Source of the DNA: Lytechinus pictus
Taxonomy: Eukaryota
Length of the DNA: 64,000 nucleotides
Direction of reading: 5' to 3'
NCBI RefSeq assembly: GCF_037042905.1
Contig: NC_087245.1
Coordinates: 11,906,001 to 11,970,000, forward strand
Below are positions 2,382-48,313 of the stretch, one piece after another (position 1 is the stretch's first letter; every line of letters starts with the position of its first letter). A program made the position numbers and the translations under genes. The notes beneath the pieces are model-generated. The model was not told where the DNA came from. It saw only the letters and a program-made list of their open reading frames with translations, and made no database searches.

Positions 2382-4960
2382 CAGGGGCGGATCCAGCCTT
2401 AGCCAATAGGAGGGGCCCGGAATATTTTTCAGCCATATTTTCCCCGATCGGCCGCTCGAACATGATTTTTGTTTGTTTCTTTGAAGGGGTAGTCCTAATA
2501 GTTACTTCTTAGCTTTATTCTTATAAATCAACATAAATATATAATATCATAATCCTTATTTTTTAATGCGAAATTTTTTATTGAAATTTTATGTATTTTT
2601 TCCTAAAATATGAACATTCTAAGCAATGTTTGATATCCTGAAAATGATGTGTATGCAACTAAATAATTACTACGAATGCGAAGCGCGAGCAGACATTTTT
2701 GATACACGTTTTGAACTGATCGAAAAGGTAGGCCTACCTACTACTTGCAGTTAGCCATAAAGACGTTACATATTTCAACAATCAAATAATGCGAGCGCCA
2801 GGCTCGAGCTGAAATTTTTTGACATTTTAACCTAAAGAATGGAAATTCTAAGCACTTTTTGTTACTTAAACGGAATAGGTGTATAACTTAACAATTGATG
2901 CGAAAATTTCTAGATTTAGACCTAAAAACAAGACACTCTATTCATGTTTTGTAAATCATGAAAAGGATGAGTAATTGGGGATCTTTCTTACATTAATAAC
3001 GCAAGCGCAAAGCGTGAGCAAAAAATTTATATACGTTTTGAACTGATCGAAAAGGTATAGGTAGGGACAGTGATTTTCCGCGATCGCGGAAAACTGACGG
3101 AATTCACGGAAAGGGCCTTTTGAAACGGAAAGTGGCATTTCAAACGGAAAATCACGGAAAACATATTTTTCCTTAAAATACACAGAAAAGCAACAGAAAT
3201 GACTCCAAAATCTCAACAAAATATGAATATTAAATGGCCACAAAACCCCAGAAAACACGATCTCACTTCGCTACAATCATGACAATTCACACATCGTGAC
3301 TGCACTCGATATCATCACACTCGATCGTATCCTACGCCCGTACCCGGCCGGCCGGCCAGGCGCCTCTACGTTCGAAGATGTAACAGCACGATATCGAGGT
3401 CTTAAAATCCAAAATGGGGGATAGGCGAAAGTCGTTGACTGCTGATAACGATGTCCAAAAAACCCAAAATTATCGATGAAATTTCATTTGACCGTAAAAT
3501 AATGTGAAAGGTGAGGATATATTCATGTTAAATGTGTTCGTCAAAATATTTAGTGCACCCGCATAAATCCGATTAGAACGGATTCTATTTCGTTGTTGGT
3601 ACAGTGGCAGATACAATTTTTGAACAGCGCGAGTATTGTGATACTGTTATTCAATGGGTAAACTGAATTGTCAAATTTTTTTGTACACAAAGTCTATGGG
3701 GAAACAGAATTTCCGTTTTCTGACATGCTGAAACGGAATTTAAGATTTTCTGAAACAGAAAAGGCAATTTTTTTAAGCGGAAAATCACTGTCCCTATATA
3801 GGCCCTGCCTGTTAAGGACTGCTTGCACTTAGCCATGGAGACGTAATTACTTCAACAATCAAATAATGCAAGCGCAAAGCGCGAGCTGAAATTTTTTTAA
3901 ATTTCTATATAAAGAATGGAAAATTTTAATCAATATTTGTATTCGTGAACAGGATAGCTATATAACTAAATAATTGATGCGAGCTGAAAAAATTGAGATT
4001 TAGACCTAAAAACGGGACACTTTATTCATGTTTTGTAAATCATGAAAGGATGAGTAATAGGGGATCTTCTTACATTAATAATGCGAACACAAAGCGCGAG
4101 CAGATGCGCATGCGTGTTTCAGATTTAATCCTAGAATCTAGGCATTCTAAATACATCTTTTATCATGAAAATCAAAGTGAGCGAGAAGCGCGAGCTTAAA
4201 ATATTTGATATTTCGATCTAAAAAAGGGTCAATTTCAGCTCTATTTCAAGCACTTTGTATGAAAATTATGAGGTGGATATGAATCGCACTTACAGATAAT
4301 AAAGAGCTGATATTTTTCATTATTATTACTTTGAGTTTTGACATAGGACCGGGACATCCTTAGGACATGTCATCATATGAAAATGTTGACTATCTTTCTA
4401 TTCCTCTTGCTAATTAAGCGCAAGATGAAACAAAAAGGACAATTTAATTATTAAATTGATATCTTATTTATTAATGCATAATGAGGGCACTGAATTAATG
4501 CGAGTGCAAAACGCGAGCCGAAATTTTTTATAAACTGTCATGAAAAGGGGATTTTAAGTAGTTTGTTGTGTAATCAATATTGACACATACATACTGGCCA
4601 ATCAAAATGCAAGCGTGCAGCGCTAGCTGATATGTTTTGTCAATCAGGCCTGAAAAGGGATATTTTGAAAACTTTATGGAATACACGAAAATGATAAGTA
4701 CCTGATAAATCAAAATTTGCGAGCGCGCAGCCGAGCAGAAAATGTTAATATTCTGGCCATAAAACTGACATTTTACAGAGCACTTTATGAAAATCAATTT
4801 GTTAATCACACAAAATAATGAAAGTTTGATTTCCGAGGTGAAATATGTTTTGTATATTGACTTCCAAACTTGATATTTAAGCTCCATATTGAACAAGTTA
4901 TGTAAATCACCTAACAGGCAATGCAAGCGTGAAGCACGAGCGAAAATCTTATATAGTGAC
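2382..4960 (+). mobile_element. Non-autonomous DNA-transposon-like element with an internal ~110-120 bp periodic GCGAGCGCGAAGCGCGAGC-type array
   Basis: Begins CAGGGGCGGATCCAG. The motif (AT)GC(G/A)AGCGC(G/A)AAGCGCGAGC followed by an A/T run recurs at ~2677, 2791, 3001, 3868, 4083, 4180, 4500, 4608, 4719, 4922. ~2740-3050 is duplicated at ~3820-4100. The right boundary is uncertain. Confidence 0.6.
3062..3796. mobile_element. 735-bp non-autonomous DNA transposon (hAT-like TAGGG ends) with perfect 20-bp TIRs and 6-bp TSD, nested in the previous element
   Basis: TIR TAGGGACAGTGATTTTCCGC (3062-3081) / GCGGAAAATCACTGTCCCTA (3777-3796); TATAGG directly repeated at 3056-3061 and 3797-3802. Confidence 0.85.
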
Positions 4961-6524
4961 ATAAAAGATTCCTTTTGGTTTCCAAGTCTTCCCCTTATTT
5001 AAATATTTTTTATTCAATCGTCTTCCTCCTCTTCTTTTTTCGGCGATCGGAAGATGTACAAAACACTTCCACAGCACTTCAAAGAAGCAAAAGTAGTACA
5101 AATCATGTGCAAGTCTATACTCCTCAGTGTCCGTGTGTGTGTGTGTCCCCATGCTGATGTGTCTTTTGTACATAAATATGTCTCTGTAAAAACAGTTACG
5201 AAGTGTGGAAAAAGGTGGCTTAAATTTCACTTTTTTTACCTTTAGATCTAAAAATTCATGTCACAGTTTGATCTGTAATCCATAGGGTTAAGCAATCTTT
5301 GCCATTTGTGTTTTGTTCATTTTTCAAAAAGTTGGTGCAAAAATGTTGAATTTTGTGAACAGAATCTTACACCCCTAAAAGCTCTGGTCATGTGACATAT
5401 GAATATTAATGAGTATGCAATAGCTGCCAATACGTGTGTATAGAGTCAATCAGATGACAATAAAATCAAATTATTTCATGGAAAATTCATTGGAATATTA
5501 CAGTGAGTGAATAAATATTGATAAGATTATGTTAGAAAATAGTTTAGGCTCTGATTTTGTTTGAAAATAAAAAAGGTGAAATTCTAGCTAACTTTTTGAA
5601 TCACTAACTGTACTTTCTAAACCTTATTTTTTGTCCACATAGAGGTGCATATATAAAATATTTCACTACATAGGATGTTTTCAATAGCTAAGCTTTGCTG
5701 TTGGGTATATTGGCACTGACTACTAATTGTGTCAATATTTTTGCGTGTTGTTAAATTTGCGGCCGATTGGCAATTCGCAAAATCCATGAAAATAAAAACG
5801 TCGTGAAAATAAAAACGCCACGAAAAGAACAGCTTATACATGTACAGTCTTGCATTAAACTGTTTTGATCACGTACAGGAAATACAGAGCATCCCAGAAA
5901 AAGGAAAACTTGATTTCTCAGTACTCTCTCCATCACATACAAATGGTTTACGATACGTACATAAATACAGCATTTTGAAAAAAATCAGATTTTCTTATTT
6001 CAATACTGTACCTTTATGAAGATTATCACATAGATATGTACATGTATGAATTGAGCAAGCGAGGATTAAGTTTTCAAATCAATATGAAATTGCTCAAAAT
6101 AATCGGTCAAGAGTAAATGAGGATAGTAATAACTAGTACAATGTTCTTGTGTAAAAGTGATTCATTAGCATCTCTTTTGTGTCTTGTATATTGTGTTGTG
6201 GATTGTCAAACTTTGAATAATGCTGTGGATTTTAGATAGAGTGCACACACTGTCAAAAAAAACTCTCATGAGGCTAGCCCAGCAAGGCAGCAACAAGCCA
6301 AAAATATCGCAAAAAAACTTTTTAAACAAAATATAATTACATGATACAAGAATTACAAACATTTGCTAGTATGCATGTATAATTTTGCATCACTAATGAG
6401 AATTCTATATCCTAGTTGTTCGTAATCTGTCATTCATGAGAGATTGAATTAATACGTATGGATTAATATGTATGGATAAACTGGATATGCTTAGTGAAAA
6501 ATGATTTTTACTCTTTATTACACA

Positions 6525-7008
6525 TGTTTATGTGCAAGACTCTCTTATGACTTAAACTCCACCACCGTAAGTCACTTTTCACCCAATCTGGGGTTATACA
6601 TTGTAGATGTACTTAGGAGACCTGCATGTTGTGCTGCAGTCGGAGTTCACATGGTAAGGTCAAAGTTAATTTTTTAGGTCAACATTAAAGTTTATATGCA
6701 AGACTCTCATATGACACGTAACTTTACAACCATAAGTCACTTTCAAATCAAACTTGGGTTGTAGCTGTAGGCCTACTTAATTAGGAGACCTGCATGTGAT
6801 TGTGTTCGGAGGTTACATGTTAAGGTCAAAGGTGATTTTGAGGTCAACATTGAAGTTTACATGCAAGACTATATGACAAATATTAATCCGTTCCAGTTAT
6901 TTCACAATGAACTTTTTATACATTTCTGTTGCGTGTACTTGCAAATCGCGATATTTTCTGGTCATTTTCACAAGTGGGTGAGACCCAATATCGCTTATGC
7001 CTTGTTTT
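6525..7008. mobile_element. Helitron/Helentron-like non-autonomous element remnant with ~165-bp internal tandem repeats
   Basis: About 2.2 diverged copies of TTTATATGCAAGACTCTC...AAGGTCAAAG...AGGTCAACATT(A/G)AAG starting at ~6527, 6691 and 6856, followed by a GGTGAGAC...CTTGTTT end. The family assignment is inference. Confidence 0.45.
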
Positions 7009-7721
7009 TCCAAATAGCAGTACTAATTACACTCATCTTGTAAGTTTTCATGAGTGGGAGTGCTAATATCACCAAACATCCTCATTTGTACATGGAGCTT
7101 AAATTATTCAGGCCTAGATCTTAGCCTAGATTTAGTTCAATCATGGCATGTGCTATTTATAACTTTCCACTAAAAATAGTTTCATTATACAAGTTTTACA
7201 GTTCACCCATTACATGTACATAGCATGTGAGTACGACCAAGTACATGTAGGTATCACTTTATCTGCTACCTCCTTTGATTCAACTGCCATTCTGCATGGA
7301 ATTTTCAGGCTGCTCTTCATAACACTTTGACTTTGGCATGTCAGTGACTGTGTACACAATTACACACATTTCAGTAATTCGGTTACTGCGTCTAATGTAT
7401 TTTTCATATTAATGGTAAGAATAGTAATGGTAAGAATTATTGTCAATTTTATTTTTCCTGTTCAATACATGTACATGTAGTATAGGGATGTATAAGGAGT
7501 TCAACTTTCAATTTTTTTTTTAGTGGATGTCAAAAGTAATGGTCACAATTTGCATGGCTTATTTCGGAGATGCTGAAGTACCGAAATTTAATGGAAATCA
7601 TGTCAAGGTTTTGTGTCTCCCAATTCACAATCAATGCGCGGAAGTTGCACATCTATTTGTGACATCACTCATACTGAGTTTCTGAGAAATTGGTAGACCA
7701 AAGTGTAATCAACACCAAATA

Positions 7722-8743
7722 CACTCGGCAAAAAAAGTTCTTGGACACTTATAAAAATTAAAATATTCCATATAGATATTTGATTAAAGGCAAATTATTG
7801 TATGTCAACATGACCAGACAATATTCCTCTTCCAGGATAACATGAAATTTTCATGTGAACAGTCATGCATGGGTGGTTAAATGCTTTAAACAATAGCAAT
7901 GTCAGTAAAAGAAAATTGCAAGAAATGGATCAGTCAGTGCATGGCTGGTTACAGGCATTAAACAATACATGTAGCAATGTCAGTAAAAGAAAATTGCAAG
8001 AAAACGATCAGTCATTCTTTCAGTTGTGAAAGTTTATGTGGCATAAATATCCATTAAACGATAAAAGCAATCTTAAAGTCAAATACCACTCCAAAAGAGA
8101 AGAGAAAGTTATCCACCTTGGATGCATCACTATTCAATTGGAATTTTAAGTCAAAGTTAGTCGATGAAAAAAATGTCAAATTTCAGTATCTTGGCATAAG
8201 CAAAAGAAAATTCAATATATCGTTTGTCCACCCTAGCTCTGAATGAGTGCAGCACATCGACGTCACATGCTTGTCACAAGTCAGCGAATTTGCCCTGAGG
8301 TGATGTTGTCCCATTCATCCAGGAGATAACACCGGACATCTTGAAGAGTGTCTCCTGGTTGAATTCTTTGATTGACTGATTTTCCTAGCTGATCCTACAA
8401 GTGTTTAATCGGGTTCATGTCTGGTGAACAAGCGGGCCATGGATCCAAGCGCTGAATATTGTGGTGACCCAGAAATCTTTGGACAATGTTGAATGTATGC
8501 ATACAGGATGGCCATGATCATTAGCATTTGAATGGTCCATTTCTTGCAATTTTCTTTAACTGACATTGCTTTTGTTTAAAGCATTTAACCACCCATGCAT
8601 GACTGTTCACATGAAAATGTCATGTCATACTGGAAGAGGAATATTGTCTGGTCATGTTGACATACAATAATTTGCCTTTAATCAAATATCTATATGGAAT
8701 ATTTTAACTTTTATAAGTGTCCAAGAACTTTTTTTGCCGAGTG
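7722..8743 (-). mobile_element. Internally deleted Tc1/mariner transposon with ~205-bp TIRs, TA TSD and a pseudogenised transposase C-terminus
   Basis: TA|CACTCGGCAAAAAAAGTTCTTGGACACTT ... AAGTGTCCAAGAACTTTTTTTGCCGAGTG|TA. Minus strand ~8445-8216 reads DPWPACSPDMNPIKHL*DQLGKSV...LLDEWDNITSGQIR*LVTSM*RRCAALIQS*GGQTIY*, the Tc1 WPxxSPDLNPIE..W / SM.RRC.A.I...GG.T.Y signature with stops. Confidence 0.92.
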
Positions 8744-9039
8744 TATTATAGTGTTTCTCTTTCAAAGTGAATATTAAGAACTATACATGTTTCCACTTCA
8801 TTTTTCATATATAATTCTACACTCTACAGATTAATTTTTTTTCTCTCTTCGTTTGGGATTCATCATTCAATTTTTTTCCATTTAATTTGTCAATTCTAAA
8901 ACATGGCCCATGTGGTCTTGCACGTCTTTAATTAAAATTGGTCAGCACAAAACCCTCTTATAATGCTGCATGGTTTTTATTATGAAATGCACGAATTGAA
9001 ACCATGATATTTCAACCATTGTTCAGATCAATATTTAAC

Positions 9040-9207
9040 TGCACTATTCGTATAAGAGTAGGGGGAAACCCCGGTGTAGTGGTCCACCTGCATTCCCCCC
9101 AATCAGTTATATCGGGAGGAGAGACCTGCGGGTCATAGTGATTCAGTTCGCTTTTCGCTTCCCAGGCACAGGTGACGCCAAACAAATAATAATAATAATA
9201 ATAATAA
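9040..9207 (+). mobile_element. Probable SINE 3' portion with (AAT)n tail
   Basis: GC-richer block ending ...CACAGGTGACGCCAAACAAATAATAATAATAAT; no A/B boxes seen. Confidence 0.35.
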
Positions 9208-10445
9208 TCTTTGCCACTATTTAACATTATGGTCTCTAAAAAGTACTAGACCTCTAATTTCATGGAATTTGGTTTACAACTCAATTTCTTACAAAAAATA
9301 ATGATTGGATGCACAGTATGATCAACCTTCACAACAAAATAATTTATTCCTCAGCAGACCCAATAATGGGTCCAAAGGGTTGGAATAAGAATGAATGTAT
9401 GGACTCTGGTTTTTATCAATACGATTAACCAAATTTCAGAGGAACTCAACTTTACCTAATATTGTTGAGGTGCATTTAGTTTGATATGAATTACATACAT
9501 GTCTATCCAAGATAACTGCCAAACCAAGCCAAATATTATCAATCACCACAAACTTGTTATCCTTGTGATCTATTGTAATGAGTCATTCGTTTATAAACTT
9601 GGAATTGGTGACTGAAATCAATGACACATCAGTTATATATTTGTTTTACAGCCACATGTCACAAATATTGAAAACCACTGAACATATCATGCTAAAGGGA
9701 ACAGAAAGTTGAGCTATTTATAGACCAATTCTGTTTCAACACTTCATTTTTGGTTACTTTTCATAGTAATTTCATATATGACCAAATCTGTAGCTTCCTT
9801 GAAGCTTCACACACATACTTGGATTTTCGTAACTCTATGGAAATCCATCAGTGTCATAATTTTTTCTACAGGAAATTTGCAAAATGTCCTTTGTAAATAA
9901 AGGAGAACACACCAAATTGTCAAGATATTAATTGATTTATGGATATACAATCGTATCTAGAATTTTTTTTTGAACAATCATGACTTTGCTGGCTTTCCAT
10001 AGTTGCGATTGATTGGATCAATTGCAACTCTTTGTAAGACAGGCCCCTGTTCAGTATGCAGACATCATATAACACTCGAGGAAACATACTGAAATTATTA
10101 GTTCTGTAGCTTGTGGTAATAACTAATGTATGGTATGACAACAAAAGGCTCTACCGACATTCATGTAGCAACACACCTGATTTATTACATAATAAATTTT
10201 ATGTTCTTTTTTAGAATTTGGAAGCTTTTAAACTACCTGATGTGAGCAGCAGTGTTTTGAAACTGGATAAGATGGATAAACTGGATATGATCCAATACCG
10301 CCTGAAAGCCTTTATGATCAATTACATACAATGTACACTGTACGTGAACATTAAAACACACTTGCAACTAGTTGTGATTGTTTGTAATTGAGTGCAGAAG
10401 ATTTTGTAACATATGGTCACACAACCAATTGTGAAACCACTTTAA

Positions 10446-11041
10446 AGGGATGGTCCAGGCTGAAGATAATTAAATCTCAATTTAAATAGAGTAAAATTCA
10501 CGGAGCAAAATGCTGAAAATTTGATCAAAATCGGATAACAAATAAAGTTATTGAATTTTAAAGATATGCATTATTCTGGTGAAACAGTTCTAGGCATGTC
10601 TTCATGAATATTCATTAGTTGGGCTGATAATGTCATATTCCCACTTGTTCTTTTGTATTTTATTATTTGAAATTGGGTTTATTCAAAACATTTTCTACCA
10701 AGAACTAAAACAATTGGATTGACAACTGATTAAGTGCATTAATTATTTATTGCCGCGACTTATTTCATCATAATGGAGAATACACATGTATGAAAAAATT
10801 AAACAAGTATGATTTCATGTAATAATATAAGAAAAAGAAAAGTGGGGATATGACATCATCAGCCCACCTAATGAGTATTCATGACGATGTGCATATAACT
10901 GCTTTCACTAAATATTGATAAACTTTAAAATTCAATAATTTTGTTATTTGTTATCCGATTTTGATGAATTTTTCAGCATTTTGCTCTGTGAATTTTACTC
11001 TATTTATTTAGATATAAATATTTTCAGCCCGGACCATCCCT
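10446..11041. mobile_element. Kolobok/T2-like MITE (TTAA TSD, AGG...CCT ends), largely palindromic
   Basis: TTAA|AGGGATGGTCCAGGCTGAA ... TTCAGCCCGGACCATCCCT|TTAA; long internal inverted symmetry, e.g. GCAAAATGCTGAAAATTTGATCAAAATCGGATAACAAATAA vs TTATTTGTTATCCGATTTTGATGAATTTTCAGCATTTTGC. Confidence 0.85.
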
Positions 11042-11189
11042 TTAAGGAGTGTGCAAGTAGATAAATCAGTTTCCACTTCATATAGTATTATAAAGCATCT
11101 TGATCTTGTTATTCTTAAAACAATCTCCTTCAATGTTTTATCCCCCTTGCAGATCTTGACTGAGTAATATAAAGGAGTTCTCAATAAAG

Positions 11190-13928
11190 ATGGGGTATGA
11201 GGTGGCCCGATTTGTTGGTGAGGTGGATGAAGAACTCATCTGTCCAATCTGTAGTGCAGTGCTTGAAGACCCTCAGCAGGTATGTAGGCTATTTCAAAGA
11301 TCTCTCTTGTTGCTTTTCGGTCATTCCTTTTGGCTTGGGGAAATAAATCGCAAGATGTCCATGTAATATTTCATTTCACTATGAAGATTAGTTCAGATGT
11401 TACCAAGTTTTGATACTGTGTCAATGTGAGGATAGTCTCTCACCATTGGGTTCTTTAGTTATATTTTCTTGATTTTATTTTGTAAAGATATCAGAAAGAT
11501 GTACTGTATATCATCTTATCTGATTTTCATATAATATAACAAAATGTATTTTACATTGTGATAGTTTTTAAGTCAAAGTTCATGTTCATTGTACATGTAG
11601 CCTACATACAAATTAGAACAAATTAATGCAGACTTGAGATTTTGAATTGATACAAAAGTTGGAGGCCTTGGACCTGGGCTTGCGACTGTAATTGCACGCA
11701 TATTTGGGTGTTGCCCGTGTGCATGCAAGTCTTTTAAAAAGTTGTTCAATCTCAATATCAGGCAAATTTAAAATACATGTTTATCCAGTACAAATAAAAA
11801 TAAGGTAAACCATTGAGTCAATAAAATGACTTGCATTGATACACATATAGAAAAAGAAATATCACCATTGGCAGTGAGGCATGGAATATGTAAATATCAA
11901 ACAAGGCAACAAGCTCATGTCACGTTACCCTACACGTATGATGCAAGGTTGGCTTTAAATAGATGAAGTTTGTTCAAAGTTTGTCCGGGGTCATGCTGGA
12001 GAAAGAGTTTAAATCAAATGCAACTTATTTTTCAACCAATGAGCTGTGTGCATTTAATTAGATTTTTTTAAGTTGTGTTACATGTAAAATGCAATTCTGC
12101 AATAGATCCCTGGTCATGAGATTGAAATGTGGATGAAACTGGCCTAAAATGTTTTTAACGATTAGTTATGTTGCACCCAAGATTTGGTAGACCTATATGC
12201 TGTACACGTTTACAAGAAAAACTTTGAAGTCTCTGAATGAAATATGACAATAGTCATTTTTCCCATGCAAGGCAAGGCCATATTATTACTAGCAAAACAA
12301 GGAAGTTTTATTTGATTATGAGTATGTAGAACTACTCCATGCAGGCATGCATTCTAGAAAGTGAATTACATGTATACCAACCACTTCAGTTACAGTATAC
12401 TGCATGTATGAATTTTATCACACTCAACTCCTCAAAACCCGGGATTGAATCTATTACGAACTTATTTTCCGATTACCATAATGATACACAGTATGTTGGG
12501 TCCCTTGATTTTTGCATGTGCATCATCTTAGTATGCAATAGCTCCTGAAAATGCATTTTTGTGTTTGAGCTTTGTTCCGCATGGATTTCAGAATATGATC
12601 CTCTTTGATACAAAACGTTATTTGACTAGAAATTTTCAACATAGTTGTTGGTTAGCCATCTGTAACTGATGGCAGATTTCTGAATAAGCTATCATTACAC
12701 AGTATGATAGTTATCTATGAACTGAACTCGAATCATTGAAACTCAGATGATTTTATTATTGCAATTTGCCTGTCACTATCAGTTCACTGCACATGTATAT
12801 TGCAGCATGAAGAGTATCACTAATGTCCTACTAACATACACAATGTATGACTTGGGAAGTTGTTAGAATAAAGTATGTAAACTCCATGAGACATTCTTTG
12901 AAAATAATCGAAATGATAAAATGTATTCTACATACTTGCTGGATTATGATATTAATAATTTAGTGTAATATACCATTGGTTTATTAAATAGTCTTTTTGA
13001 ACTTATACATGTAGAGGTCGAGTATTGACAGCATACATTAATTTTCATTCTCTTTTAGGCACCAGAATGTGAACATGCTTTTTGTTCTACCTGCATCCAA
13101 GAATGGTTATCTCGTCAGCAGACCTGCCCTGTAGACCGTAACCACATAACATCTCAGCAGCTCAAACCTGTGCCTCGTATCTTGCGCAACCTCCTTGCCC
13201 GCCTCCAGATTCGCTGCGACAACGAAGGCTTCGGCTGTGCCTCCGTTGTCCGTTTAGATTCCCTGCAGCAGCACCTTCAGGAATGCGAGCACAACCCCAA
13301 GCGTCCTATACAGTGTGACAAAGGATGTGGTATGGTCATCCCCAAGGATGAGGTCAAAGACCACAATTGCGTCCGGGAGTTGAGGCTCCTGGTACAGAAC
13401 CAGTCCAACAAGCTTGGTGAGCAGGAAACGGAATTGACAGAGATCCGAAGCCAACTGTCGGAGCATCGTCGCGAGATGCAGATGTTGAAAGAGTACATCC
13501 GCGCCATACGGATCTCCAACCCAAACACAAGCCCTTCAGTCCGTGCGATCGAGGATGAAATTGAGAACAATGAAGTGGTGCGATGGGTGAACTCCATGCC
13601 CCTTGCTCGTGTTACCCGCTGGGGCGGGATGATTTCCACACCGGACGTTGTTCTTCAGACAGTCATCAAGCGTTCCCTCCTTGAAAGTCACTGTCCAGCT
13701 CATATTGTTGCAGAACTAATGGAGAATGCCCATGAGCGCAACTGGCCACCAGGGCTTAGCACCCTTGAGACACGTCAGATGAATCGCCACACCTATGAAC
13801 AATACGTCTGTCGTAGGATACCAAGTAAGCAGGCAGTGCTTGTGATGGCATGTGACAATGCTCATATGGGAGAAGACTTCACATTGGACCCTGGTTTGGT
13901 CATGATCTTTGCACATGGGATAGAATGA
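11190..13928 (+). CDS. RNF41: E3 ubiquitin-protein ligase NRDP1 (RING finger, TRAF/SIAH-type zinc finger, coiled coil, C-terminal USP8-interacting domain), 319 aa
   Basis: Coding exon 11190-11279 (MGYEVARFVGEVDEELICPICSAVLEDPQQ, donor GTATGT, acceptor TTGCAG ending 11152). Coding exon 13059-13928 (APECEHAFCSTCIQEWLSRQQTCPVDR...ARVTRWGGMISTPD...NAHERNWPPGLSTLETRQMNR...PGLVMIFAHGIE*). Strongly matches the vertebrate RNF41 sequence as recalled. Upstream non-coding exon(s) not placed. Confidence 0.97.
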
Positions 13929-16542
13929 TATCCTCATAGTAGAATGCAATATTCTCAAACAATAGAAAAGAAACTTGATCATTCTTTGCAATTGAAGACT
14001 TATGGTAGTATAAGCTCAGGTTTTGAGCAGTTGAAGCAGTACCTGCTCATTTTTTATTTGAGTTTAATATGTGTCTCTTGGATTCTAACTTATTGTGGAC
14101 AGTATAGTATTTTTTCTGGCACAATGTTTAGTTGTAAAATGCAGCCTGTTTGGCTTCCTGTACATGTATATTACACATCTGCCTTGAGGGAGTTATTTTG
14201 TTGCATTCTTTATTGGTAGAGAATTACAAGTTTAATTATATGCAATTTGAATTGTGTTCTAGCAGATTTGAGATGATATGTTGCTTGCTGAGAGAATACT
14301 TTTCATAGTTTGATATTTAAAGACTAAGTATTTGTTTGACCTTTGAAACATACCGGGGTATATGTTTCTAAATAAATAAAGGGAATTTAAGGCTTAGCAG
14401 TAATTGGGACAATAATCAATGCTTAAATGGAGCAATGGTTGGCTATTAATTTTATAAACAAAAGGATGAATATTATCTTTATGTATACGTGTCTTGCCTG
14501 CGGCTGTTGCAAATTTATTCCTATTTCAGTGTGTTTATTTGGCTTGCCGTAATGTGACGTATAGATTTATATGTTACTATGTACTTGCTTTATAGTAAAC
14601 TCTTTAAATGGACTTTATGGAATAATGTATTACATGGTTTTTATACATGTACACCATTTTTAGTTTCTGGTGTTGAAATTTGGAGTCTTCTTTCATTTAC
14701 TGAATGCTATAAAAGACTAAGTTACCGGATAGATAATATATATATTTTAAATTCTAAACAAGTTTACATTTCTACATGTAAATGGGAAGGTTGATCAGGG
14801 AAGAGTGTTTTCACAAACAAAATTGCTCTCAGCCATTCAGCCACAAGGATTTTAGTAGTTAACAACATTTTTCAGAGAAAATCACTGACAAATCACTTCA
14901 TGAAACTCTAACTATGTCATAATCAATCTCTGGACTCTGCCTTTCTTTAGGAGTCAGACATTGCTAGAAATTTTGGATAGATTACATGAAATCTGTCATC
15001 ATTTACAGGTCAATCTTAGGCCACAAACATTTTTGTTTTGTTTTGAAATTGCAAATTATTAGATGGATTGCCAGTCTGCATTTTGATAAAGTTTTCAAAT
15101 GATAAATTTATTTGCAACACCCCTCTTAGTCTTTTTTTTTTAATCTCCTCTATCTTTAACTGCTTCTAATTAGTGCTCTCAGTTATATACTCTTCTGATA
15201 TGTTGCAAGTGGAGCATTTTGATATATTTAGAAGATCTTAGATAGTACTAAGGTCTGGACTTAAGTGAACTACAGAAGGGGTTCATTTACAGACGCGGTT
15301 GAGCACGTCAGGTATTGCTTTGTGTTTAACAGGTCTGGTAATGGAAAAGTCTCTCAATGTATTGTAAATTGACGACAAAGTGCAACTTTCCCCCTAAAAA
15401 AATATAGAAAACACTGATTACTGTAAAATTCAGTATTGCTGCTGAGGTGATAAAACTGGGATCTGAAACCAGTTGCAATATTCAAGAGAGTGACAAAACA
15501 TGGCTTCCTTCCTGTATCAATGGGATAGTCTCTTGTTTGACATAACATTCATGAAACTTTCAATGTAGAGAAAGTGAGATTTGGACAGGAGCTGAGATGA
15601 ACTATTATGGTCACTTAGCCATTCAGGGCACAGCAGGCAATAAGTTTCAAGGAATCCATCAAAGTTTTTAGTGGATGGCAAAGTTAGCATCATAGTACTT
15701 AACTCATACAAAAGAGCCAATGCCAGTGTGACACAACTTTAATTTGGTTGGCTGTGTATGGTAATGATATGGCTTTCAGGATTATTTATATATTTTTCCT
15801 CTACTCAAAATCTTATGTTTTATTGAGAATGTAACATAATTTGTGCATACCATTATTCAAACTTTTTGGAGAACTGAATACTTGCAGAATGCCTGCCCAT
15901 TGGGTTGTGGACAAAGGCTTGAAGTATCACCTACATGTTAGCTTAATGTGTGTAGCTGAATAACGCTAGAGTGCTATGTTCTCATTTTCCCAATTTTAAT
16001 TTTCAAAAGAAAAAAAATCAAGGATGGTCGTGTTGTAATATACCTCTGCATATTAGACAGTACTTCATTGTAGTACTGTAGTACAACCAAGTGAAGACAA
16101 AAGGGATGGTTTTGATAGACTAATACTTTCTAAAGGTACATACATTCATTTCTCGAACCTAAAATAAACAAAAAATGTAGGGTGTGTATTACTTTGCTAG
16201 TCTTCGTCAGGTTTGACGAAGCTTGTAGCCTAGCAAGCGAAAGCTTACCAAAAAACAATTCATGATTGTGAAATAAATAATGTTTTTCTCAAGTCAAGAT
16301 AGTTGTGAGCAATTACATTCAAATGAAGATTTGGATCTTGAGTGCTTCATTTGATAATGAAAAGTACATGATTGATTTTATATTCAATTTGTATTTGATC
16401 AAATGTAACTCATAGGAAGATATGGGCTCGGACTTTGTAAAGTTAACAATTACATGTTTTCAATAGTTTATTCAGAGAAATAGGATCTATTGTGGCATTA
16501 AACTTTCATCCTCTTGGTTAATTTATATTGGTCTGAATAATT

Positions 16543-16793
16543 GTAATAATAATAATGATTTGATAATAATAACAATAATAATAATAATAATTATAATAAT
16601 AATAATAATTATAATAATAATAATAATGATGATAATAATAATGATAATAATAATAATAATAGTAATAATAATGATAATAATAATAATGATAATAATAATA
16701 AAATTAATAATAATAATGATAATGATAATAATAATAATGATAATAAAAGTAATAATAATAATATTAATAATAATAATTATAATAATAATAATA
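16543..16793. repeat. (AAT)n imperfect microsatellite
   Basis: ~250 bp of AAT/GAT triplets; source of the poly-Ile ORF. Probably lies within the RNF41 3' UTR. Confidence 0.95.
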
Positions 16794-19168
16794 GAAAGCC
16801 ATAGCCTAATTTTACCTGTGGATCAGATAATATAACTGCTTCAAACAATGGCATGATGCATCAAGTATGTTCTTGTACTCTATTATATTTAGACCCTTGG
16901 AATTGATTTAAGTTTCAATAAGGTTCTGTACACAGAGACTACTCCCATGGTGTGGTATTCCTTTTCTTTGGCACTGAATTCCTATTTTGATTTCTTTCAA
17001 GGTTTGAAAACAAAAATAATGGAGACTGTTGTGTAAATACTGAATAGCATTTGCCATTTCATTGAAGCTATTATCTGCAAGCAGTGGTGTAGAATAAGGA
17101 CTCCAGTTACAACCATACATGCATTGCCAACTTTTAGAAATGATTGCATAATCAAGAACTTTTGATGAACCTGCATATATTTGTTTGTATTCTTATAGCA
17201 TCTGTCATAACAGTCTAACTTAGTCTAACGTAAATGTGTATTGCACTTATGTTTTGACTGCTTGTTTCAAAAATTTAGTTTGTAATGAAATAAGAAGTGA
17301 TAACAAATGCAGAAGCCAGAAGGCTCCATGTACATGTACTGTAGTCTATGTATAAATGTGGACTAAATTTTGTTCTATCTCATTGTTACCATAGTTTAAT
17401 GTGAGAATTTCTTTGATTTAATCTTATAGATGGTTTTAAGATTTAAACCAAGCTTTCTTTAAATATCTGTTTTATTTTGGCTGTTGAATATGATTTCAAA
17501 TAGTTTCTTGCCTTAAGATGATAAATACTTTGATTTTACTTAATTCTTATATCATGTATATGTCTAACTTGAAAGTTGTGTGTACATGGAGTCGGAATAC
17601 AGTGACCGACAAAAAAAAAAAACTTTGTTTTCCTTCTAATCATGATCATTTGTCAAAACAGGACATGATATCTCAAAGGATTTCACCCAAATAAATATAG
17701 AACACAAACAAAGGAGCAGCAACATTCAACACATAACCAATCGATTATCCTTAATTTGTAACTTATGCAGATCACTCATGCCTTTTAGCTGAAAGCAATT
17801 TTGCTCTCTCTGCATACTGCGTACAAGATACCATTGTTTATACTGTTATAGACTACATGTATGTACATGTATGTACCATCTGTTTGCTTGTGTTGAAAAT
17901 GTCTATCCATTCAAATTAGCCACTGAAGATAGAAACAACACAAATACTATTAGTTTTCTACTTGAATTATTGTATGCTTTTTGTTTGTTTTTTTAAACAA
18001 GAAATGACATCACAATCTGTTGATTGGTATATAGGATGGTTTGTAATTTGAAAAGTTCAATTGAATCACATGTTTATGTCCAGTTTTAAAGGCCTCTTCA
18101 AATTCAGCTTCACATTATTTTTTTGTCTTCTTTGAAATACATTAATTAAATTGATCAAATTCTAGTAGTTTGATTTATTCAATGCCCATTGCAAAAAGAG
18201 ATGTGTTTAAACACAACTATTGAAAAAAAATCAAATCTTTGAATCAACTCTTCTGAATGTTTATTAGTTTTCTCTGAATTTTTAAATTTTGTTTGATTGC
18301 AACTATTTCTGCAATGGGCCCCTGAACACTTTAGACCACTTCAAACATACCAGCAAAACTTCTCATTAGAAATTAGTAGTTGTTTCCTCAGTAAGTTTAT
18401 TGTTGCCTGTTGAGATTTGTACAGTTACAAAAAATTGAAGACACAAATAAATGATTTGATGGAATTTAAATGAAATATTTAATCAAATCATTGTATGCCA
18501 GGTTTATTACAATTGACTGTTTATTGGTGGTATTTTTGTATGTAACAGGGCCTTAAAATTAAACATTGTCATCTGGTTAAGAGCTTTACAACTCAAGCAA
18601 GCAATTTATTCACAGACAAGAAAGAAAAGAATGATTACTTCTCTAGAACGGAGGAAAAATCAGTAATTAGTGTCAATACTGTAAAAAAATACATTTTATA
18701 GAATAACATAAGATGATGATATTTTGGTTGCTAAATTTGTAAATTATGATATCTTTTTTTACTTTGTGACATACAAATGTCAGCAAATGTCAGTATGAGT
18801 AAATGAGCAACTATACTTCACCGTCATTTGATCTATTGGTTATTTTGCTTCTCTGTGTTTCGGGGTTAGTTGTTATTAATTGGTGGAATTTACTTGTTTT
18901 TGTGCAAATATTTACTGAATACTGTTCATATACTGTGTAATATGTCCTTATTGACTTATATAATAAAATACTTCTTGGCGTATTAAATACTGCATATATG
19001 AGACTATTAGTTGTTTAGTTTTGAAGATTCTGACATCAATATCTCTGAGATGATTGGGACTTGGGGTGTTTCATAAAGCTAATTCCAAGTTTATGAACGA
19101 CTTTAAAAATGACTGGAACATAGTTTTGGTTGCAGCATCAGATATAATCAATCATCAATCCCCATTAA

Positions 19169-19769
19169 AGGGGAATCCAGCCTTAGTCATAAAGTGTTGT
19201 GTTGGTAAGGAGAAAATTAAATTTAACAGAATGGTGAAAGTTTGAAAGAAATCGGACAAGCAATAAGAAAGTTAAAGCTGCTTTAAAATTGAGATCACTA
19301 ATACTATGTAGTTTTCAAATTGGCAACTGGGTAAGTAAATTATGACAAGGGGCAAGGACAACTTACCCATAGGCCATGTACTTTATTATCAGGGATTTGT
19401 GATTTTCTCCTAAGTACCAATTCCCCTGGGGCAGTAATCTAAATATAACCCAGGTAGTATATTGTTTTATGTCCTCCTGAAAGAAAAATATATATTGAAA
19501 TAAAACTTTTGGGAAAAATGACATTTTAGCCATAATATGTATTGGAGTACATGGAAGAGTAGTCCTTGCCTTACATCACTAATCTATGGCATCCCATATG
19601 CGGCCAATTTGAAGTCTCCATGGGTATAGTGATTACCAATATTTACAACTTTTAAAAATTCCTAACTTTCTTGTTGTTTGTCCGATATTGTTCAAACTTT
19701 CACCTATCAACTTGTCTGATTTTTTCTTTTCCTTATAAAAACAAGTTTTTATTTGGGTTGGATTCCCCT
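19169..19769. mobile_element. Kolobok/T2-like MITE (TTAA TSD) nested in an older GGGGTGTTTCATAAAG-type MITE (~19063-19893)
   Basis: TTAA|AGGGGAATCCAGCC ... GGTTGGATTCCCCT|TTAA. Outer inverted ends GTGTTTCATAAAGCT (~19066) and AGCTATGAAACAC (~19881-19893). Confidence 0.8.
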
Positions 19770-22034
19770 TTAAGCTAAGGTTGAACTCCGAACACTTTAT
19801 TTAAACACCAGGAAAAATATGGGTAACTCACTTAGTACAAGAACATCAGTCGTTTGTAAACTTGTTCTAATTTTTTTTAAAGCTATGAAACACAAAATTG
19901 TATGAATCTATAAAGAAAGTTTACACTGACATTCCCTAATTAGTATGTTTTATCATTATGGTTTTGATGGATAAGACACTGGTGTAGTTGGTGTTTGTTG
20001 TTTGAGCTTTGATGATAAACTGCATATTATGTGAATTGTGTCAGTGGATACGAGAGCCGTTGTGATAACGATATGATGTTGATAAAGACAATATTAAAAT
20101 TGTCTATCCGTTCTTCAGCTGGTTGAAAGATGTATCTAGAAATTGGCAGACGGTCTAGCGAGTTGAAAAATACATTCAAAGTTGAATTCCCGCCATCTTG
20201 CACCATCTGACCTTTTTATTTAAACAGAGACAATAGTTTAAAGGTAACATAATGTGACAGTGCCTGTCATATGATGAATATAAATTTTATATTTGTCATG
20301 TTCAGTTATGATGTTGGTGAATAGATAGGTCCTATGTGACGAAAGATAATTGTGCCCTTGTGGATTTGAATGACAATTATAATGCCCTCCTAATCTTCAT
20401 TTTTAGTATGATTTTATTGTTATCAGAATTATAATCATCGTGATGCTAGTGATAATGATATATTCACGGATCGGATAGATGTAACTGATTTTTTTCATTA
20501 ATATTTTATTCTTTATTTGATTGATTCTATCAATATCCAAGTATATTGTACGTGTTACGGTTAATCTAGGCTTAATTGGGTTTACAATCTCCTCTTTCTC
20601 TCCTATCGCCCCTCCAAACCTCCATTTTCTCTCTTCCTCTTTTCACGTTCACTCCTCTTATATTCTGTCTTTCTGATTCAAATTACGAAACGTACATAAA
20701 AGAAAACATCTCAACATTTAATGTGTAAACATTCTTTTCTTTTTATAAATCTACATGTTTGTTGGCTCTTTCTTTAACAAATTAGTAATAAGGTATCACA
20801 CGACTAGACTACCGATTCAAAGAGTGAAATAAGATAAGCTGTATACCAGTTTAAACAGGCACAGATCCAAGGGGAGGGCCAAAGGGCCCCTTTTTTACCC
20901 TAATTTGTATAACGATAGTACTTCATATGTAGTGCAACATCACTGTTGGAAGTGAAGATGAAACTAGGTCAGTTTGGGGGAGAGAATTCGATTTTCTAGT
21001 ATGCAGCGCTTAGAAAAATTTTTATTAAGCGCTTTATAAATATTGCTTATCATTATTGATAATATTATTATTGTTGTTGTTATTATTTCATTTATTATTA
21101 TTTTCCCTTCAATTCCCAATACTGCTTCCTTTCTCAAGAACTCAATTCATTTTTCTCTCTCCGTATTACAGTGTAACAATGTCGACTTTTAATGTGTTGT
21201 ATAAAATGTGTTCTTTTGATTGTTTTATGTATATATGTATTGTGCAGGGCCCTGGTTGACAACAGTGTCTAAACCACTGAACAGGCTACCCTGGGTAAAG
21301 AAGACAAATAAAAAAATAAAATAAAAAATATTATTATTTTCTCATCAATTGATTTTGGGGAAAAGGAAATAAGAATATTTTAAAAATATTAACCCCGTTT
21401 TTTATCTGAAAGGGGGGTGGGGGCTTGCCAAAAAAATCGTCGCGTCCCCCCCCCCCCCCCCCATTTTGAAATCTTGGGTCCTGCATTTTGGACAAACCGT
21501 TCTCATCATAAATAATAATGTTCTTTGTATTCTTGGGTGTCATACCGGGTACCTCATGGCTTTTCATAATGATATTAGGGAAGCCCTGCAATTTTCATAC
21601 AACATGTTTAAGAATTTGCTTATATTCTCTATATTTTTTTAATAGTTAGCATTTTAATAATTTAGTGATGTAATATTTTCATACGAAATAATTGTCTTAA
21701 AATTTATGAATAGAAGTCATTTTTCGGATAAAACGAATTTTACAAGTCACTAAATGTTATACTTTTTGGTACAATCGGCCATTTACGATCCATGTACGTA
21801 TACTCCTATTCCTCTTAAGCAATATTTAATCCATCTTTGCTCTCCTGACTCACGGGTCTCTCGTCTGAGGAAAAAAAAAAAAAACAGTGAGAATAGCTCA
21901 GAATTATTAACTTTTAAATTTTTTGAAAATTGAAAACAATGAAAAACTAATAGTAAAATAATGAATGAATACAAAATAAAAATAAATAATTCAGTTGTTT
22001 TATTTTAATTTGAAAAATTGCTAGTTATGTTTAA

Positions 22035-23490: not shown

Positions 23491-26400
23491 TCACACATAG
23501 TGAGTAAACACAATTTGAACAAAGGATACCCAAAATTCAGTTGTCGGGTGTATAGGTAATTTGTTTTTTGTATTTGTGATTAAGTTATCGACAATTCTCG
23601 GTTTCGTTTTTTTTCTAGGACGCACTGTAGTATTGAAATAAAGGGATTGTGATCTGTGAGCTCCGATCTGGCTCTAGATCTAACAAAACTGAATATAAGC
23701 TGTTTATCTATCAAGTAATATCTATCATATTTAACTAGATTCAATCATTTTTAGAAAATGGTTAGAACGAACCGTCTGAGCATCCCTTTTCATCAACGCC
23801 ATCCTTGCAGTCTGTCATTCCATCGCAGAGGGCGGACTTGATGATACACACACCATCACATGAGAACATTCCAAAACGTTCACATTCTTGCATTGTGCGA
23901 TCTAAAGAGGAAAAGCCCAATTTAAAACAGGCGAAATGTTTTCAGAAGTATAGAAATATAAAAACACACAAAGCGAACAAAAATAAAATCATGATCCCAC
24001 TTCAGACATCGACTCGCTGTTAGATGAAACTAGGAAAAAATGGAAACCACACAAAATGACCTCGAACAAAAATATCTTTTTCTTCTAAAATAACTGACTT
24101 ATTGACTTTAGAGCATTGTAACAAGGTTATATTTAGTTTTGTTAAAGGTATTTGAACAACCTCGCTAAATTAGATTCGAAATGTAAGAAATCAAGTAATG
24201 ATGTAATGAACACAAATTTTTCCACAAATATTCGAAATTTGCAGACCGATATAAATCTTTTGATATCCACACCTATAAAATAGTGGTGTATTCTAACCAT
24301 ATTTTCAATGTTAGAAAGGACAAGAGATCTTGCTTCAGTTGCTATTGATGGCAACTGATAATCAAAAGGAAGTTCAAAGCCAGGTTCTCGGAAAGGGGAC
24401 CCTTTTCGAATTGAGTGCGAGAATTACTGAATATGGTTAAACGTCGATCTTACCGCATGTTTTATATTCATCTGATCCGTCCTTGCAATTTTTATATCCG
24501 TTGCAGAATAAATCGTCCGTAATACATTGGAGTCCATCAGCACATTTACTTGAGCCAAGAGGACATGGATGATTGCAACTATAAAGTGATTTAATAATGT
24601 GAAATCCATTATCATATAATTCTTAATATTATCCTTATTTGTATATGTTCTACAAATATGACAAATGACTTTTTCTGCTTCTTTAGATACAAAGACTAGT
24701 AAAAATGAGCCCACGCAAACTTCAGATACAATTCAATAATCAATGTTTTAAAGCAGATATATGATAACAAGATGTTAAAGTATTAGCTGCATTATATTCT
24801 TCAAGTTTTTTTTTCTTTGAAAATTGTTTATAATTATATTGGACTTTCATAATATGATTGTGCTTGAATACTTCATCCTATGTTTTTTTTCTGGGGGGGG
24901 GGGCAAAATGTTGGTGTGCATTGTCGTTTGCTGTATGGAATCATGGACTTTTACTGTCGAGATTGAAGAAATAATTAATTTGCATGTGAAACAAAAATGG
25001 CCCCAGGAAAATCTGCAGTATATTTAAAGAAGAGATTGGAATAAATAACCGAGCAATGCTAACCGTTCCGATGTTTCATCATAGTTGTCATCACAGTCCT
25101 GAACTCCATCGCAAAAATCCTCAATTAGCAACCGTTTCTCCCCACCATCAAGTCCTATACAGGACACTGATAAACAATAAAAAAAGAAGATATGATTATG
25201 TTTTTCTATTTTAAAAATCATGTTACGTGCGGACATGAAAGATATCAAAACGGGTGGAATAGAAAGTAAATTATGAAATTAAGAAATTAAAATGGGATAA
25301 TAGGGAAAACATTTCGTGTGCAAGCAAAAGATACGGGGATTTTGATGAAATTCAGTGGTGGGGTTTGTAAATAGGGACGTCATAAAGAGACTGGGAAATA
25401 ATATGGAAATTGATAAGAGAAAATAGGGCAAAAGGGTGTGGGAGGGAGGGAGATCGGTAGAGTGAGACAAAGATAGAGGATGGGATGCAGAGAAAGGAAA
25501 ATATGGAGGAAGGGAAAGATGGAAGGAATAAGGGAGAGGGAAGATGTAAGAGACAGACTAAAAGTGAAATAAAGGAAACGAATAACAAACAAAAAGCTTT
25601 TTTATTTATCTCGGTGGCAAAAATGATAGCATATTACTGAAACAAAAAGAAATGAAAATATTAACATACTGCAGTTTTTCTCATCAGCGCCATTGTAACA
25701 ATGGAAAACACCATCGCACCAATCCTTGTTATCGATACACTGAGGTGACTTGTTGCACTTTGTGAATCCAGGTGGGCACTCACGATCCAGCTCTGAAGAA
25801 TTAAGAAATAATGATCAGATTTTCATTATCCTGGACACCATAATCCTATTAGAACTGCCGTCATCATCATCATCTTCAACCTCCTATTAGCCACACCATC
25901 GCCATCCTCGTCACCCCCCCCCCCCCCCACGATCATACCATTCACCTACTCATTATCTTATTGTTACTACATCATCATCATCCCCGTCGTCACCTTCCTA
26001 TTATCACACAATAATAATCCTCGTCACCCTCCTATTACCACACCACCATCCTCATCGTCACCCTCCTATTAACACATCATCATCCTCCTCGTCACCCTCC
26101 TATTAACACATCATCATCCTCGTCGTCTCCCTCCTATTACCACACCATCATCCTCGTCGTCATCCTCCTATTAACACACCATCATCCTCGTCGTCACCCT
26201 CCTATTACCACACCATCATCCTCCTCGTCACCCTCCTATTACCACATCATCATCCTCGTCGTCACCTTTATTACCACACCATCATCCTCCTCGTCACCCT
26301 CCTATTAACACATCATCATCCTCCTCGTAACCCTCCTATTACCACATCACCATCCTTATCGTCTCCCTCCTATTACCACACCACCATCCTCATCGTCACC

Positions 26401-29348
26401 CTCCTATTACCACACCATCATCCTCCTCGTCACCCTCCTATTACCACACCATCATCCTCCTCGTCACCCTCCTATTACCACACCATCATTCTCCTCGTCA
26501 CCCTCCTATTACCACACCATCATCCTCCTCGTCACCCTCCTATTACCACATCACCATCCTCATCATCACCCTCCTATTACCACACCACCATCCTCATCAT
26601 CACCCACCTATTACCACATCATCATCCTCGTCGTCGTCCTCCTATTATCAAACCTTCATCCTCATCGTCACCCTCCTATTACCACACCATCATCCTCCTC
26701 GTCAACCTCTTATTAAAAAACCATCATCCTCATCGTCACCCTCCCATAACCACACCACCATCCTCATCGTCACCTTCCTATTACCACACCATCGTCCTCG
26801 TCGTCACCTTTATTACCACACCATCATCCTCCTCGTCACCCTCCTATTATCAAACCTTCATCCTCATCGTCACCCTCCTATAACCACACCACCGTCCTCA
26901 TCGTCACCCTCCTATTACCACACCATCATCCTCGTCGTCACCCTCCTATTACCACATAATCATCCTCATCGTCACCCCCCTATTACCACACCATCATCCT
27001 CATCGTCACCCCCTATTACCACACCATCATCCTCGTCGTCACCCTTCTATTACCACACCATCATCCTCATCGTCACCCTCCCATAACCACACCACCATCC
27101 ACATCGTCACCCCCCCCCCCTATTCCCACACCATCATCCTCATCGTCACCCCCCTATTACCACACCATCATCTTCGTCGTCACCCTCCTATTACCACACC
27201 ATTATCCTCCTCATCACCATCCTATTACCACACCACCATCCTCGTCATCACCCTTCTATTACCACATTATCATCCTCGTCGTCACCCTCATATTACCACA
27301 CCACCATCTTCATCGTCACCCTCCTATAACCACACCACCATCCTCATCGTCACCCTCCTATTACCACACCACCATCCTCATCGTCACCCTCCTATTTCCA
27401 CATCATCATTTTCGTCGTCCCTCCTATTATCAAACCTTCATCCTCATCGTCACCCTCCTATAACCACACCACCATCCTCATCGTCACCCTCTTATTACCA
27501 CACCATCGTCCTTGTCGTCACCCTCCTATTGCCACATTATCATCCTCGTCGTCGCCCTCATATTATCAAACCTTCATCCTCATCGTCACCCTCCTATAAC
27601 CACACCACCATCCCCATCGTCACCCTCCTATTACCACAACATCGTCCTCGTCGTCACCCTTCTATTACCACATTATCATCCTCGTCGTCGCCCTCCTATT
27701 ATCAAACCTTCATCCTCACCGTCACCCTCCTATAACCACACCACCATCCTCATCGTCACCCTCCTATTACCACACCATCGTCCTCATCGTCACCCTTCTA
27801 TTACCACACCATCATCCTCATCATCACCCTCCTATTACCACACCATCATCCTCATCATCACCCTCCTATTACCACATAATCATCCTCATCGTCACCCCCC
27901 TATTACCACACCATCATCCTCATCATCACCCTCCTATTACCACATAATCATCCTCATCGTCACCCCCCTATTACCACACCATTATCCTCCTCGTCACCCT
28001 CCTATTACCACACCATCATCCTCATCGTCACCCCCCCCCCCCTATTACCACACCATTATCCTCCTCGTCACCCTCCTATTACCACACCACCATCATCATC
28101 GTCACCCCCTATTACCACACCATCATCCTCATCGTCACCCCCTATTACCACACCATCATCCTCGTCGTCACCCTCCTATTACCACATAATCATCCTCATC
28201 GTCACCCCCCTATTACCACACCATCATCCTCATCGTCACCCCCCTATTACCACACCATCATCCTCGTCGTCACCCTCCTCTTACCACATAATCATCCTCA
28301 TCGTCACCCCCCTATTACCACACCATTATCCTCCTCGTCACCCTCCTATTACCACACCATCATCCTCATCGTCACCCCCCTATTACCACACCATTATCCT
28401 CCTCGTCACCCTCCTATTACCACACCACCATCTTCATCGTCACCCCCCTATTACCACACCATCATCCTCATCGTCACCCCCTATTACCACACCATCATCC
28501 TCATCGTCACCCCCTATTACCACACCATCATCCCCGTCGTCACCCTCCTATTACCACATAATCATCCTCATCGTCACCCCCCCTATTACCACACCATCAT
28601 TTTCATCATCACCCTCCTATTACCACACCATTATCCTCCTCGTCACCCTCCTATTACCACACCACCATCCTCGTCATCACCCTTCTATTACCACATTATC
28701 ATCCTCGTCGTCACCCTCATATTACCACACCACCATCTTCATCATCACCCTCCTATAACCACACCACCATCCTCATCGTCACCCTCCTATAACCACATAA
28801 TCATCCTCATCGTCACCCCCTATTACCACACCATCATCCTCATCGTCACCCCCCTATTACCACACCATCATCCTCGTCGTCACCCTCCTATTACCACATA
28901 ATCATCCTCATCGTCACCCCCTATTACCACACCATCATCCTCATCGTCACCCTCCTATTACCACACCATTATCCTCCTCGTCACCCTCCTATTACCACAT
29001 TATCATCCTCGTCGTCGCCCTCCTATTATCAAACCTTCATCCTCATCGTCACCCTCCTATAACCACACCACCATCCCCATCGTCACCCTCCTATTACCAC
29101 AACATCGTCCTCGTCGTCACCCTTCTATTACCACATTATCATCCTCGTCGTCGCCCTCCTATTATCAAACCTTCATCCTCATCGTTACCCTCCTATAACC
29201 ACACCACCATCCTCTTCGTCACCCTCCTATTACCAGACCACCATCCTCGTCGTCATCACCAGTAAATACCACGATAGAAAATCTGGTTATCGGGTAATAG
29301 GATAATATTATGACATCCTCCTATGCGGAAATATATATATATATGTAG

Positions 29349-32410: not shown

Positions 32411-32462
32411 CACTGACACTCTTGGAAAGGGTAATAGAAAGGACTTGAGCAACACGTATGGT

Positions 32463-36640: not shown

Positions 36641-48313
<11,673 letters not shown>

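Follow-up and report, generated by a model that had tools for sequence, protein, structure and literature searches.

Why a single palindromic octamer, TACATGTA, should crowd into one gene is the question raised by a 64-kb stretch of the Lytechinus pictus genome (NC_087245.1, positions 11,906,001 to 11,970,000; hereafter the window), where most copies of this word lie in and around RNF41/NRDP1, a housekeeping gene whose two coding exons specify a product of 319 amino acids. The octamers are probably scars left where transposons of the Tc1/mariner type, with CA...TG ends, were excised, and their excess would reflect a higher rate of scar formation over RNF41. Taken by itself, an origin as footprints is at least as probable, and, given footprints, a true bias in rate rather than the age of the DNA is close to an even call.

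There are 21 exact TACATGTA matches in the window, 17 inside a CpG-poor domain (5095-20043) and 4 outside it, at 29557, 30445, 44179 and 49828; each of these 17 and 4 coordinates in an initial annotation of this DNA proved exact. Dinucleotide shuffles of the whole window (n=100) contained a mean of 1.98 copies and at most 8, while shuffles of the domain alone (n=300) contained a mean of 0.58 and at most 3, none of the 300 reaching 17. Markov models fitted to the region predict 0.57, 0.77 and 1.59 copies (orders 1, 2 and 3). The density in the domain is about 30-fold above chance. Counted per TA dinucleotide, the octamer occupies 17/1218 sites inside and 4/3759 outside (p=9e-8), and it is the most over-represented 8-mer of the domain, second only to an ATA microsatellite.

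The claimed concentration over the RNF41 gene body is borne out as a coincidence with the CpG-poor domain. Of the domain octamers, seven precede the first coding exon, four are in the coding intron, three in the 3' untranslated region (UTR) and three further downstream; the coding sequence contains none of the 17, an absence that says little because it offers just 26 TAs. The 3'UTR reaches at least to 16004, since a contig from a public run (X11, record 15) that is identical to the window over 13057-16004 has its first base at the exon boundary. In invertebrates, methylation sits mainly on transcribed gene bodies, with young intronic transposons the most methylated, according to the available part of PMC8857917. 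Together with this general pattern, the CpG loss of the domain (observed/expected, o/e, 0.39) suggests gene-body methylation of RNF41, and, with general knowledge of invertebrate gene bodies, it suggests germline expression as well. The parallel lies in the concentration of methylation on transcribed gene bodies; in the part available, that work addresses how resident elements are methylated and does not treat excision scars or the targeting of insertions (PMC8857917).

The octamer is identical to a documented product of Tc1 excision. In C. elegans this excision leaves non-complementary 3' overhangs of 2 nucleotides (nt) (PMC4490562, legend of Figure 1), and among 103 wild-type germline revertants, all in frame, the join termed class L, TACA+TG+TA, accounts for 24 and is the commonest after precise excision, with 25 (PMC4490562, Supplementary Data 3). 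Class L was also recovered in brc-1 (8) and lig-4 (10) animals (PMC4490562). TACATGTA is therefore a known germline Tc1 footprint, sharing with class L both the TA-CA-TG-TA sequence and the gain of 6 nt at a TA (van Schendel et al., 2015). In the sections of that study cited here, class L is one of 26 outcomes at a single site, in an assay that sees in-frame products only, whereas in the RNF41 domain it is apparently the dominant scar and fixed, exceeding one per kb in a single gene body where no donor has been caught. The proposal of a Tc1-type footprint has thus gained an exact published product, and CpG decay fails as an alternative source (see below), but no site has been seen with a full element in another haplotype. 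Sleeping Beauty footprints, TACAGTA/TACTGTA, likewise consist of TA, terminal bases and TA; as described in the relevant part of PMC6943129, they differ in adding 5 nt, in using three bases of one end only and in not being palindromic. No statement of a TACATGTA footprint occurs in the available portions of PMC5521727, PMC7913693, PMC13148408, PMC6829131 and PMC3979674, and no description of its density and gene-body bias was found in the open-access literature, a search outside which bioRxiv supplements and subscription papers fell, so that an earlier description is possible.

Origin by insertion can be followed at 7966, within a Tc1-like element resident in the domain (7722-8743). A neighbouring copy of the same segment reads AAACAA-TA-GCAATG (7888), whereas the copy at 7966 reads AAACAA-TACATGTA-GCAATG and is 6 nt longer; a third copy, in the right terminal inverted repeat (TIR), reads AAACAA-AA-GC and is also 6 nt shorter. 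The contrast between a bare-TA and an octamer copy, proposed earlier as an internal control, is therefore real, with the correction that the third copy has AA and no TA. Contigs from four public runs were compared with 5200-16450, which contains 14 of the 17 octamer sites, and repeats dominated the resulting matches. Element-family contigs without the 6 nt at 7966 were present in all four runs (8, 7, 17 and 1 contigs, with 49%, 8%, 30% and 100% of the depth, respectively), and one of them (X11 record 10) spans 7916-8205 and therefore cannot be a mis-placed neighbouring copy. The two shorter paralogues and the family contigs show that the 6 nt at 7966 were inserted in this copy or within its sub-lineage. 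Its CATG has no template in the flank, and it is the only octamer site present among the indels listed (12 of 302). The description of all octamers as 6-nt insertions at TA accordingly holds by paralogues and four-run contigs for this site and is inferential for the other 16.

The resident element is bounded by TIRs of 215 nt (207/215 identical, 96%) with CA...TG ends and TA on both sides; the inner bases of the octamer, CA and TG, are the ends of this element, a match of low information content, with just two bases at each end. Its decayed transposase C-terminus (8212-8517, minus strand) aligns with Pfam DDE_3 at E=0.027 and 14.7 bits, below the curated cut-off of 28.6, and the triad spacing is not visible in this C-terminal piece; its WP..SPD.NPI.HL motif resembles Tc1. 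An inverted-repeat search of the whole window (at least 15 nt, up to 8 kb apart) detected no second TA-flanked CA...TG element, nor is there a second transposase remnant of this kind in the window. The earlier statement that its Tc1/mariner elements end in CA...TG and duplicate TA therefore applies to this one element and not to several.

The surroundings of the octamers suggest that the same TAs were used more than once. Their outer flanks have the form TA-spacer-TA in 9/34 cases, compared with 57/2296 background TA flanks (2.5%; p=2e-7), where the spacers counted were CA/TG, CAG/CTG, GGC/GCC and CATG; when duplicates and possible slippage are dropped, 5/30 (p=1e-3) or 4/30 (p=7e-3) remain. 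Compound forms, earlier read as re-insertion into old footprints, are thus supported by this flank excess, but there is one perfect double only (7466/7472, TACATGTACATGTA), the pair at 17854/17864 being a tandem duplication of 10 nt. Uncorrected counts of related words also show modest excesses in the domain: TACATA/TATGTA (24 vs 15.1 expected), the Sleeping Beauty words (7 vs 2.4, one of them adjoining an octamer at 17337), TAGCCTA/TAGGCTA (5 vs 0.8, with 1 outside) and one-mismatch octamers (22 vs 12.2). The compound flanks and these excesses are consistent with TAs that were used repeatedly and with scars of differing ages. Microsatellites aside, just two TA-NNNN-TA words are enriched, TACATGTA and TAGGCCTA, and both are palindromes, which counts in favour of joins that keep two bases from each end because such 2+2 joins require a palindrome. 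Around the TAs of the octamers, T stands at -2 in 25/42 half-sites (p=0.002) and C at -4 in 13/42 (p=0.04), a composition confounded by the compound scars. The target-site preference of Tc1 is CAYATATRTG. For ZB, the excerpted source gives ATATATAT as the preference around the TA.

The second palindrome, TAGGCCTA, occurs 11 times, at 2729, 6768, 23058, 35013, 39667, 48851, 58660, 59912, 60017, 60247 and 62230, with 10 copies outside the gene region against about 0.3 expected. Its distribution (1 in, 9 out) is opposite to that of TACATGTA (17 in, 4 out; p=3e-4), and its avoidance of the domain therefore argues against simple retention or age alone, provided that it is a scar of the same type; possibly it represents a second scar family. 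The copy at 6768 was considered as a second insertion control and rejected, as it aligns as substitutions to a neighbouring repeat unit. Likewise rejected as a GG...CC TA-duplicating donor was an element at 3062-3796, which has a 6-bp duplication (TATAGG) and ends TAGGG...CCCTA. This element, which we take to be hAT-like, is 735 nt long and non-coding, with perfect 20-nt TIRs, and the paralogue of its host repeat unit carries TAGGCCTA at 2729.

The octamer is also in excess in RNF41 of other animals. Among 80 RNF41 loci from metagenome contigs, 19 near-duplicates were dropped, leaving 61 non-redundant loci (217 kb), many of them short or transcript-like, in which TACATGTA occurs 20 times against 5.3 expected. 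CpG-poor loci account for 13 (2.4 expected) and the others for 7 (2.9 expected), a split in which taxon and CpG level are confounded; TATGCATA shows no excess in the 61 loci (3 vs 5.1). No orthologous pair among the 80 loci displays a clean 6-nt gap at an octamer. Across the 61 loci, TACAGTA/TACTGTA are found 60 times against 28.1 expected, and one locus with 81% protein identity (L001, 363-376) has a double, TAGGCCTAGGCCTA, parallel to the TACATGTACATGTA double of the window.

A footprint origin would proceed as follows. An element enters a TA and duplicates it, as is demonstrated for the resident element; excision would leave a 3' overhang of 2 nt on each side, TACA and its mirror, which are not complementary, as published for Tc1; and end joining that retains both would produce TA-CA-TG-TA with a net gain of 6 nt, an outcome published in Tc1 germ cells and matched by the +6 at 7966. 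Later elements may re-use the TAs of a scar and leave compound scars, as the flank enrichment suggests, and drift would fix scars in non-coding DNA, where they would decay slowly. The excess over RNF41 would then stem from a higher rate of scar formation in chromatin predicted to be methylated and constitutively transcribed. Biased insertion, biased excision, choice of repair pathway and DNA age all predict a pattern that fits the one observed over RNF41. A rough steady-state estimate, with 16 scars in excess on 1218 TAs and loss at 8 times the substitution rate, would put scar formation at about 0.1 per TA and per base substitution.

Several observations weigh against this account. The implied rate of about 0.1 is high given that a single element of donor type resides in the window, and insertion is demonstrated at 1/17 sites. 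In a relative that is about 5-7% diverged, 6039 (0, +2 nt) and 12079 (0, 0) show no 6-nt difference, by lengths derived from distance arithmetic on the relative's contigs, and these two sites are therefore older than the split or not insertions. No full element was seen at an orthologous octamer TA, either among the indels listed (12 of 302) or in the metagenome RNF41 loci, which gave no informative pair; related loci of the latter set differ by four 6-nt indels, none of which (0/4) is exactly CATGTA, and RNF41 loci with 92% identity share a conserved coral-like octamer. The usual Tc1/mariner footprint of nonhomologous end joining, in the passage available, consists of the first or the last 2-4 nt (PMC6943129), which predicts TACATA/TATGTA, words that are raised only weakly in the domain. 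The inverted-repeat search of the window found no CC...GG or GG...CC TA-duplicating element for TAGGCCTA. Finally, the spacers of the compound scars were chosen after the flanks had been seen, so that the corresponding p-values are optimistic.

Footprints might accumulate without any targeting if the introns and UTRs of housekeeping genes are older and less turned over, with young repeats diluting the DNA between genes. In keeping with this, 1 of the 14 octamers of 5200-16450 lies in the high-copy repeats that cover about 26% of that range (p=0.08), the sites 6039 and 12079, as insertions, would predate the split from the relative, and one-mismatch octamers are in excess. Age as the sole cause is nevertheless doubtful: TAGGCCTA, if the same kind of scar, is distributed oppositely, a young element in the domain (that with TIRs 96% identical) is already scarred (n=1), and the CpG-rich stretch 30600-44000, with the exons of another gene and a CpG o/e of 0.78, has no TACATGTA in 13.4 kb.

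An abortive transposase or a host process that adds CATG-TA at TA in methylated chromatin, with no resident transposon, would explain why the product is so uniform, why the implied rate is high, why full elements are scarce and why the word recurs in distant animals. It is unlikely, as the CATG at 7966 is not templated by the flank and the product equals the Tc1 scar documented in the cited sections of PMC4490562. A one-end footprint of the Minos type, consisting of TA and four terminal bases of a CATG-ended element, has in its favour that, in the passage available, canonical footprints comprise the first or last 2-4 nt (PMC6943129), and that forms with +4 are in weak excess. It is quite improbable: the inverted-repeat search of the window detected no CATG-ended element, palindromy of both enriched words would be a coincidence (about 1/16 each), and the one-end words of the resident element, TACACTA (1 vs 2.3) and TACACTTA (0 vs 0.9), are unenriched. 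Minos leaves a 6-bp footprint, for which no paper was found in the open-access literature. We know of no mechanism for transposon-free addition of CATG-TA, which counts against the host-process explanation.

A selected protein- or RNA-binding motif built by substitutions (UGUA-type 3'UTR elements or CATG-binding factors, for example) receives very little credence: TACATGTA is a bound motif in Phytophthora, as far as the part available of PMC11134190 goes, and the conserved coral-like octamer lies in a 3'UTR, but octamers are spread over introns, UTR and a transposon interior, that at 7966 arose by insertion, and the flanking words GACATGTC, CACATGTG and AACATGTT are unenriched. Decay of CpG in TACGCGTA/TACGTGTA, which the initial annotation had named as a refuting origin, or slippage can be dismissed almost entirely, although the domain is CpG-poor and slippage accounts for 17854/17864 and perhaps 7466/7472, because decay of TACGCGTA would also yield TATGCATA (1 vs 0.64 in the domain) and TACACATA/TATGTGTA (1 vs 1.21), which are at chance level, the precursors occur 0-1 times, and 7966 is a gap with neither substitution nor flank copy.

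With excision footprints as the preferred reading, a broader proposal may be put forward tentatively: in marine invertebrates, including sea urchins, a Tc1/mariner lineage, or host repair of its breaks, might be steered to the bodies of methylated housekeeping genes and work mostly hit-and-run. Per TA, it would write one uniform 6-nt insertion about one-tenth as often as point substitutions occur, and TAGGCCTA would be the mark of a second system acting on unmethylated DNA. If so, the genome would carry, in its octamer density, a map of germline chromatin and of transposon traffic that otherwise goes unseen. As a rule, excisions leave nothing that can be counted; if the octamers are scars, they would measure past cut-and-paste traffic per site as well as chromatin bias. 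The scar itself is known, its density in one gene body is undescribed in the literature found, and targeting is unproven; new from the window are the cross-validated insertion at 7966, the match to primary Tc1 data, the statistic on compound scars and the opposite distribution of TAGGCCTA. Matches to TACATGTA or TAGGCCTA in motif searches of marine invertebrates may be mutational rather than regulatory.

Table 1. Coordinates of the octamer sites, the resident element and the RNF41 domain in the window.
Feature	Position	Strand	Remarks
CpG-poor domain	5095..20043	.	from CpG-count changepoints alone; CpG o/e 0.39 vs 0.78-1.1 elsewhere; holds 17/21 octamers
TACATGTA	5837..5844	.	exact match
TACATGTA, TA-TG at left (compound)	6039..6046	.	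length-conserved in one contig of relative
TACATGTA then CA-TA (compound)	7211..7218	.	exact match
TACATGTA	7242..7249	.	exact match
Double TACATGTACATGTA	7466..7479	.	re-insertion or 6-mer slippage
Internally deleted Tc1-like element, 1022 nt	7722..8743	-	ends CACTCGG...CCGAGTG; TA duplication 7720-21 and 8744-45
TACATGTA	7966..7973	.	+6 at TA in duplicated sub-terminal segment of Tc1-like element
RNF41/NRDP1, first coding exon part	11190..11279	+	ATG 11190; exon start 11153
TACATGTA then GCC-TA-CA-TA (compound), intron	11592..11599	.	exact match
TACATGTA, intron	12079..12086	.	length-conserved in two runs of relative
TACATGTA, intron	12367..12374	.	exact match
TACATGTA, intron	13006..13013	.	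exact match
RNF41/NRDP1, main coding exon	13059..13928	+	no octamer; 95% identity to Diadema antillarum NRDP1 cluster
RNF41/NRDP1 3'UTR, at least to 16004	13929..16004	+	octamers 14161, 14644, 14773
TACATGTA then CTG-TA (compound with Sleeping-Beauty-type word)	17331..17343	.	exact match
(TACATGTATG)x2 plus TA: octamer with TG-TA, then 10-nt tandem duplication	17854..17875	.	exact match

Some features of the relative's contigs were not used as evidence. These contigs break on both sides of 14609-14644, two of them beginning exactly at the octamer at 14644, where the relative may hold an insertion, and one of the two has 238 unlike letters ahead of that point. Another contig begins at the right TA of the resident element (8744), and a further one is 26 nt shorter across 7164-7704, within which four octamers lie. 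Upstream of the RNF41 coding exons, a candidate non-coding exon may lie at 7310-7414/7429, preceded by an AG acceptor (7308-09) and having two GTAAG donors; X11 depth in its bin would fit about 110 nt of transcript contig.

Miniature inverted-repeat transposable elements of about 600 nt, with TTAA duplications and long imperfect TIRs, occupy 10442-11045, 19165-19773 and 47430-48025, the first being present at very high copy in the public runs. By translation of open reading frames, the exons within 30600-44000 (minus strand) presumably form a gene in which CUB-like and subtilisin-like pieces occur together with an acidic exon. An array of about 3.4 kb composed of 34-nt units extends over 25837-29265, and at 216-1126 three tandem units of 287 nt and an inverted partial copy form nested inverted repeats.

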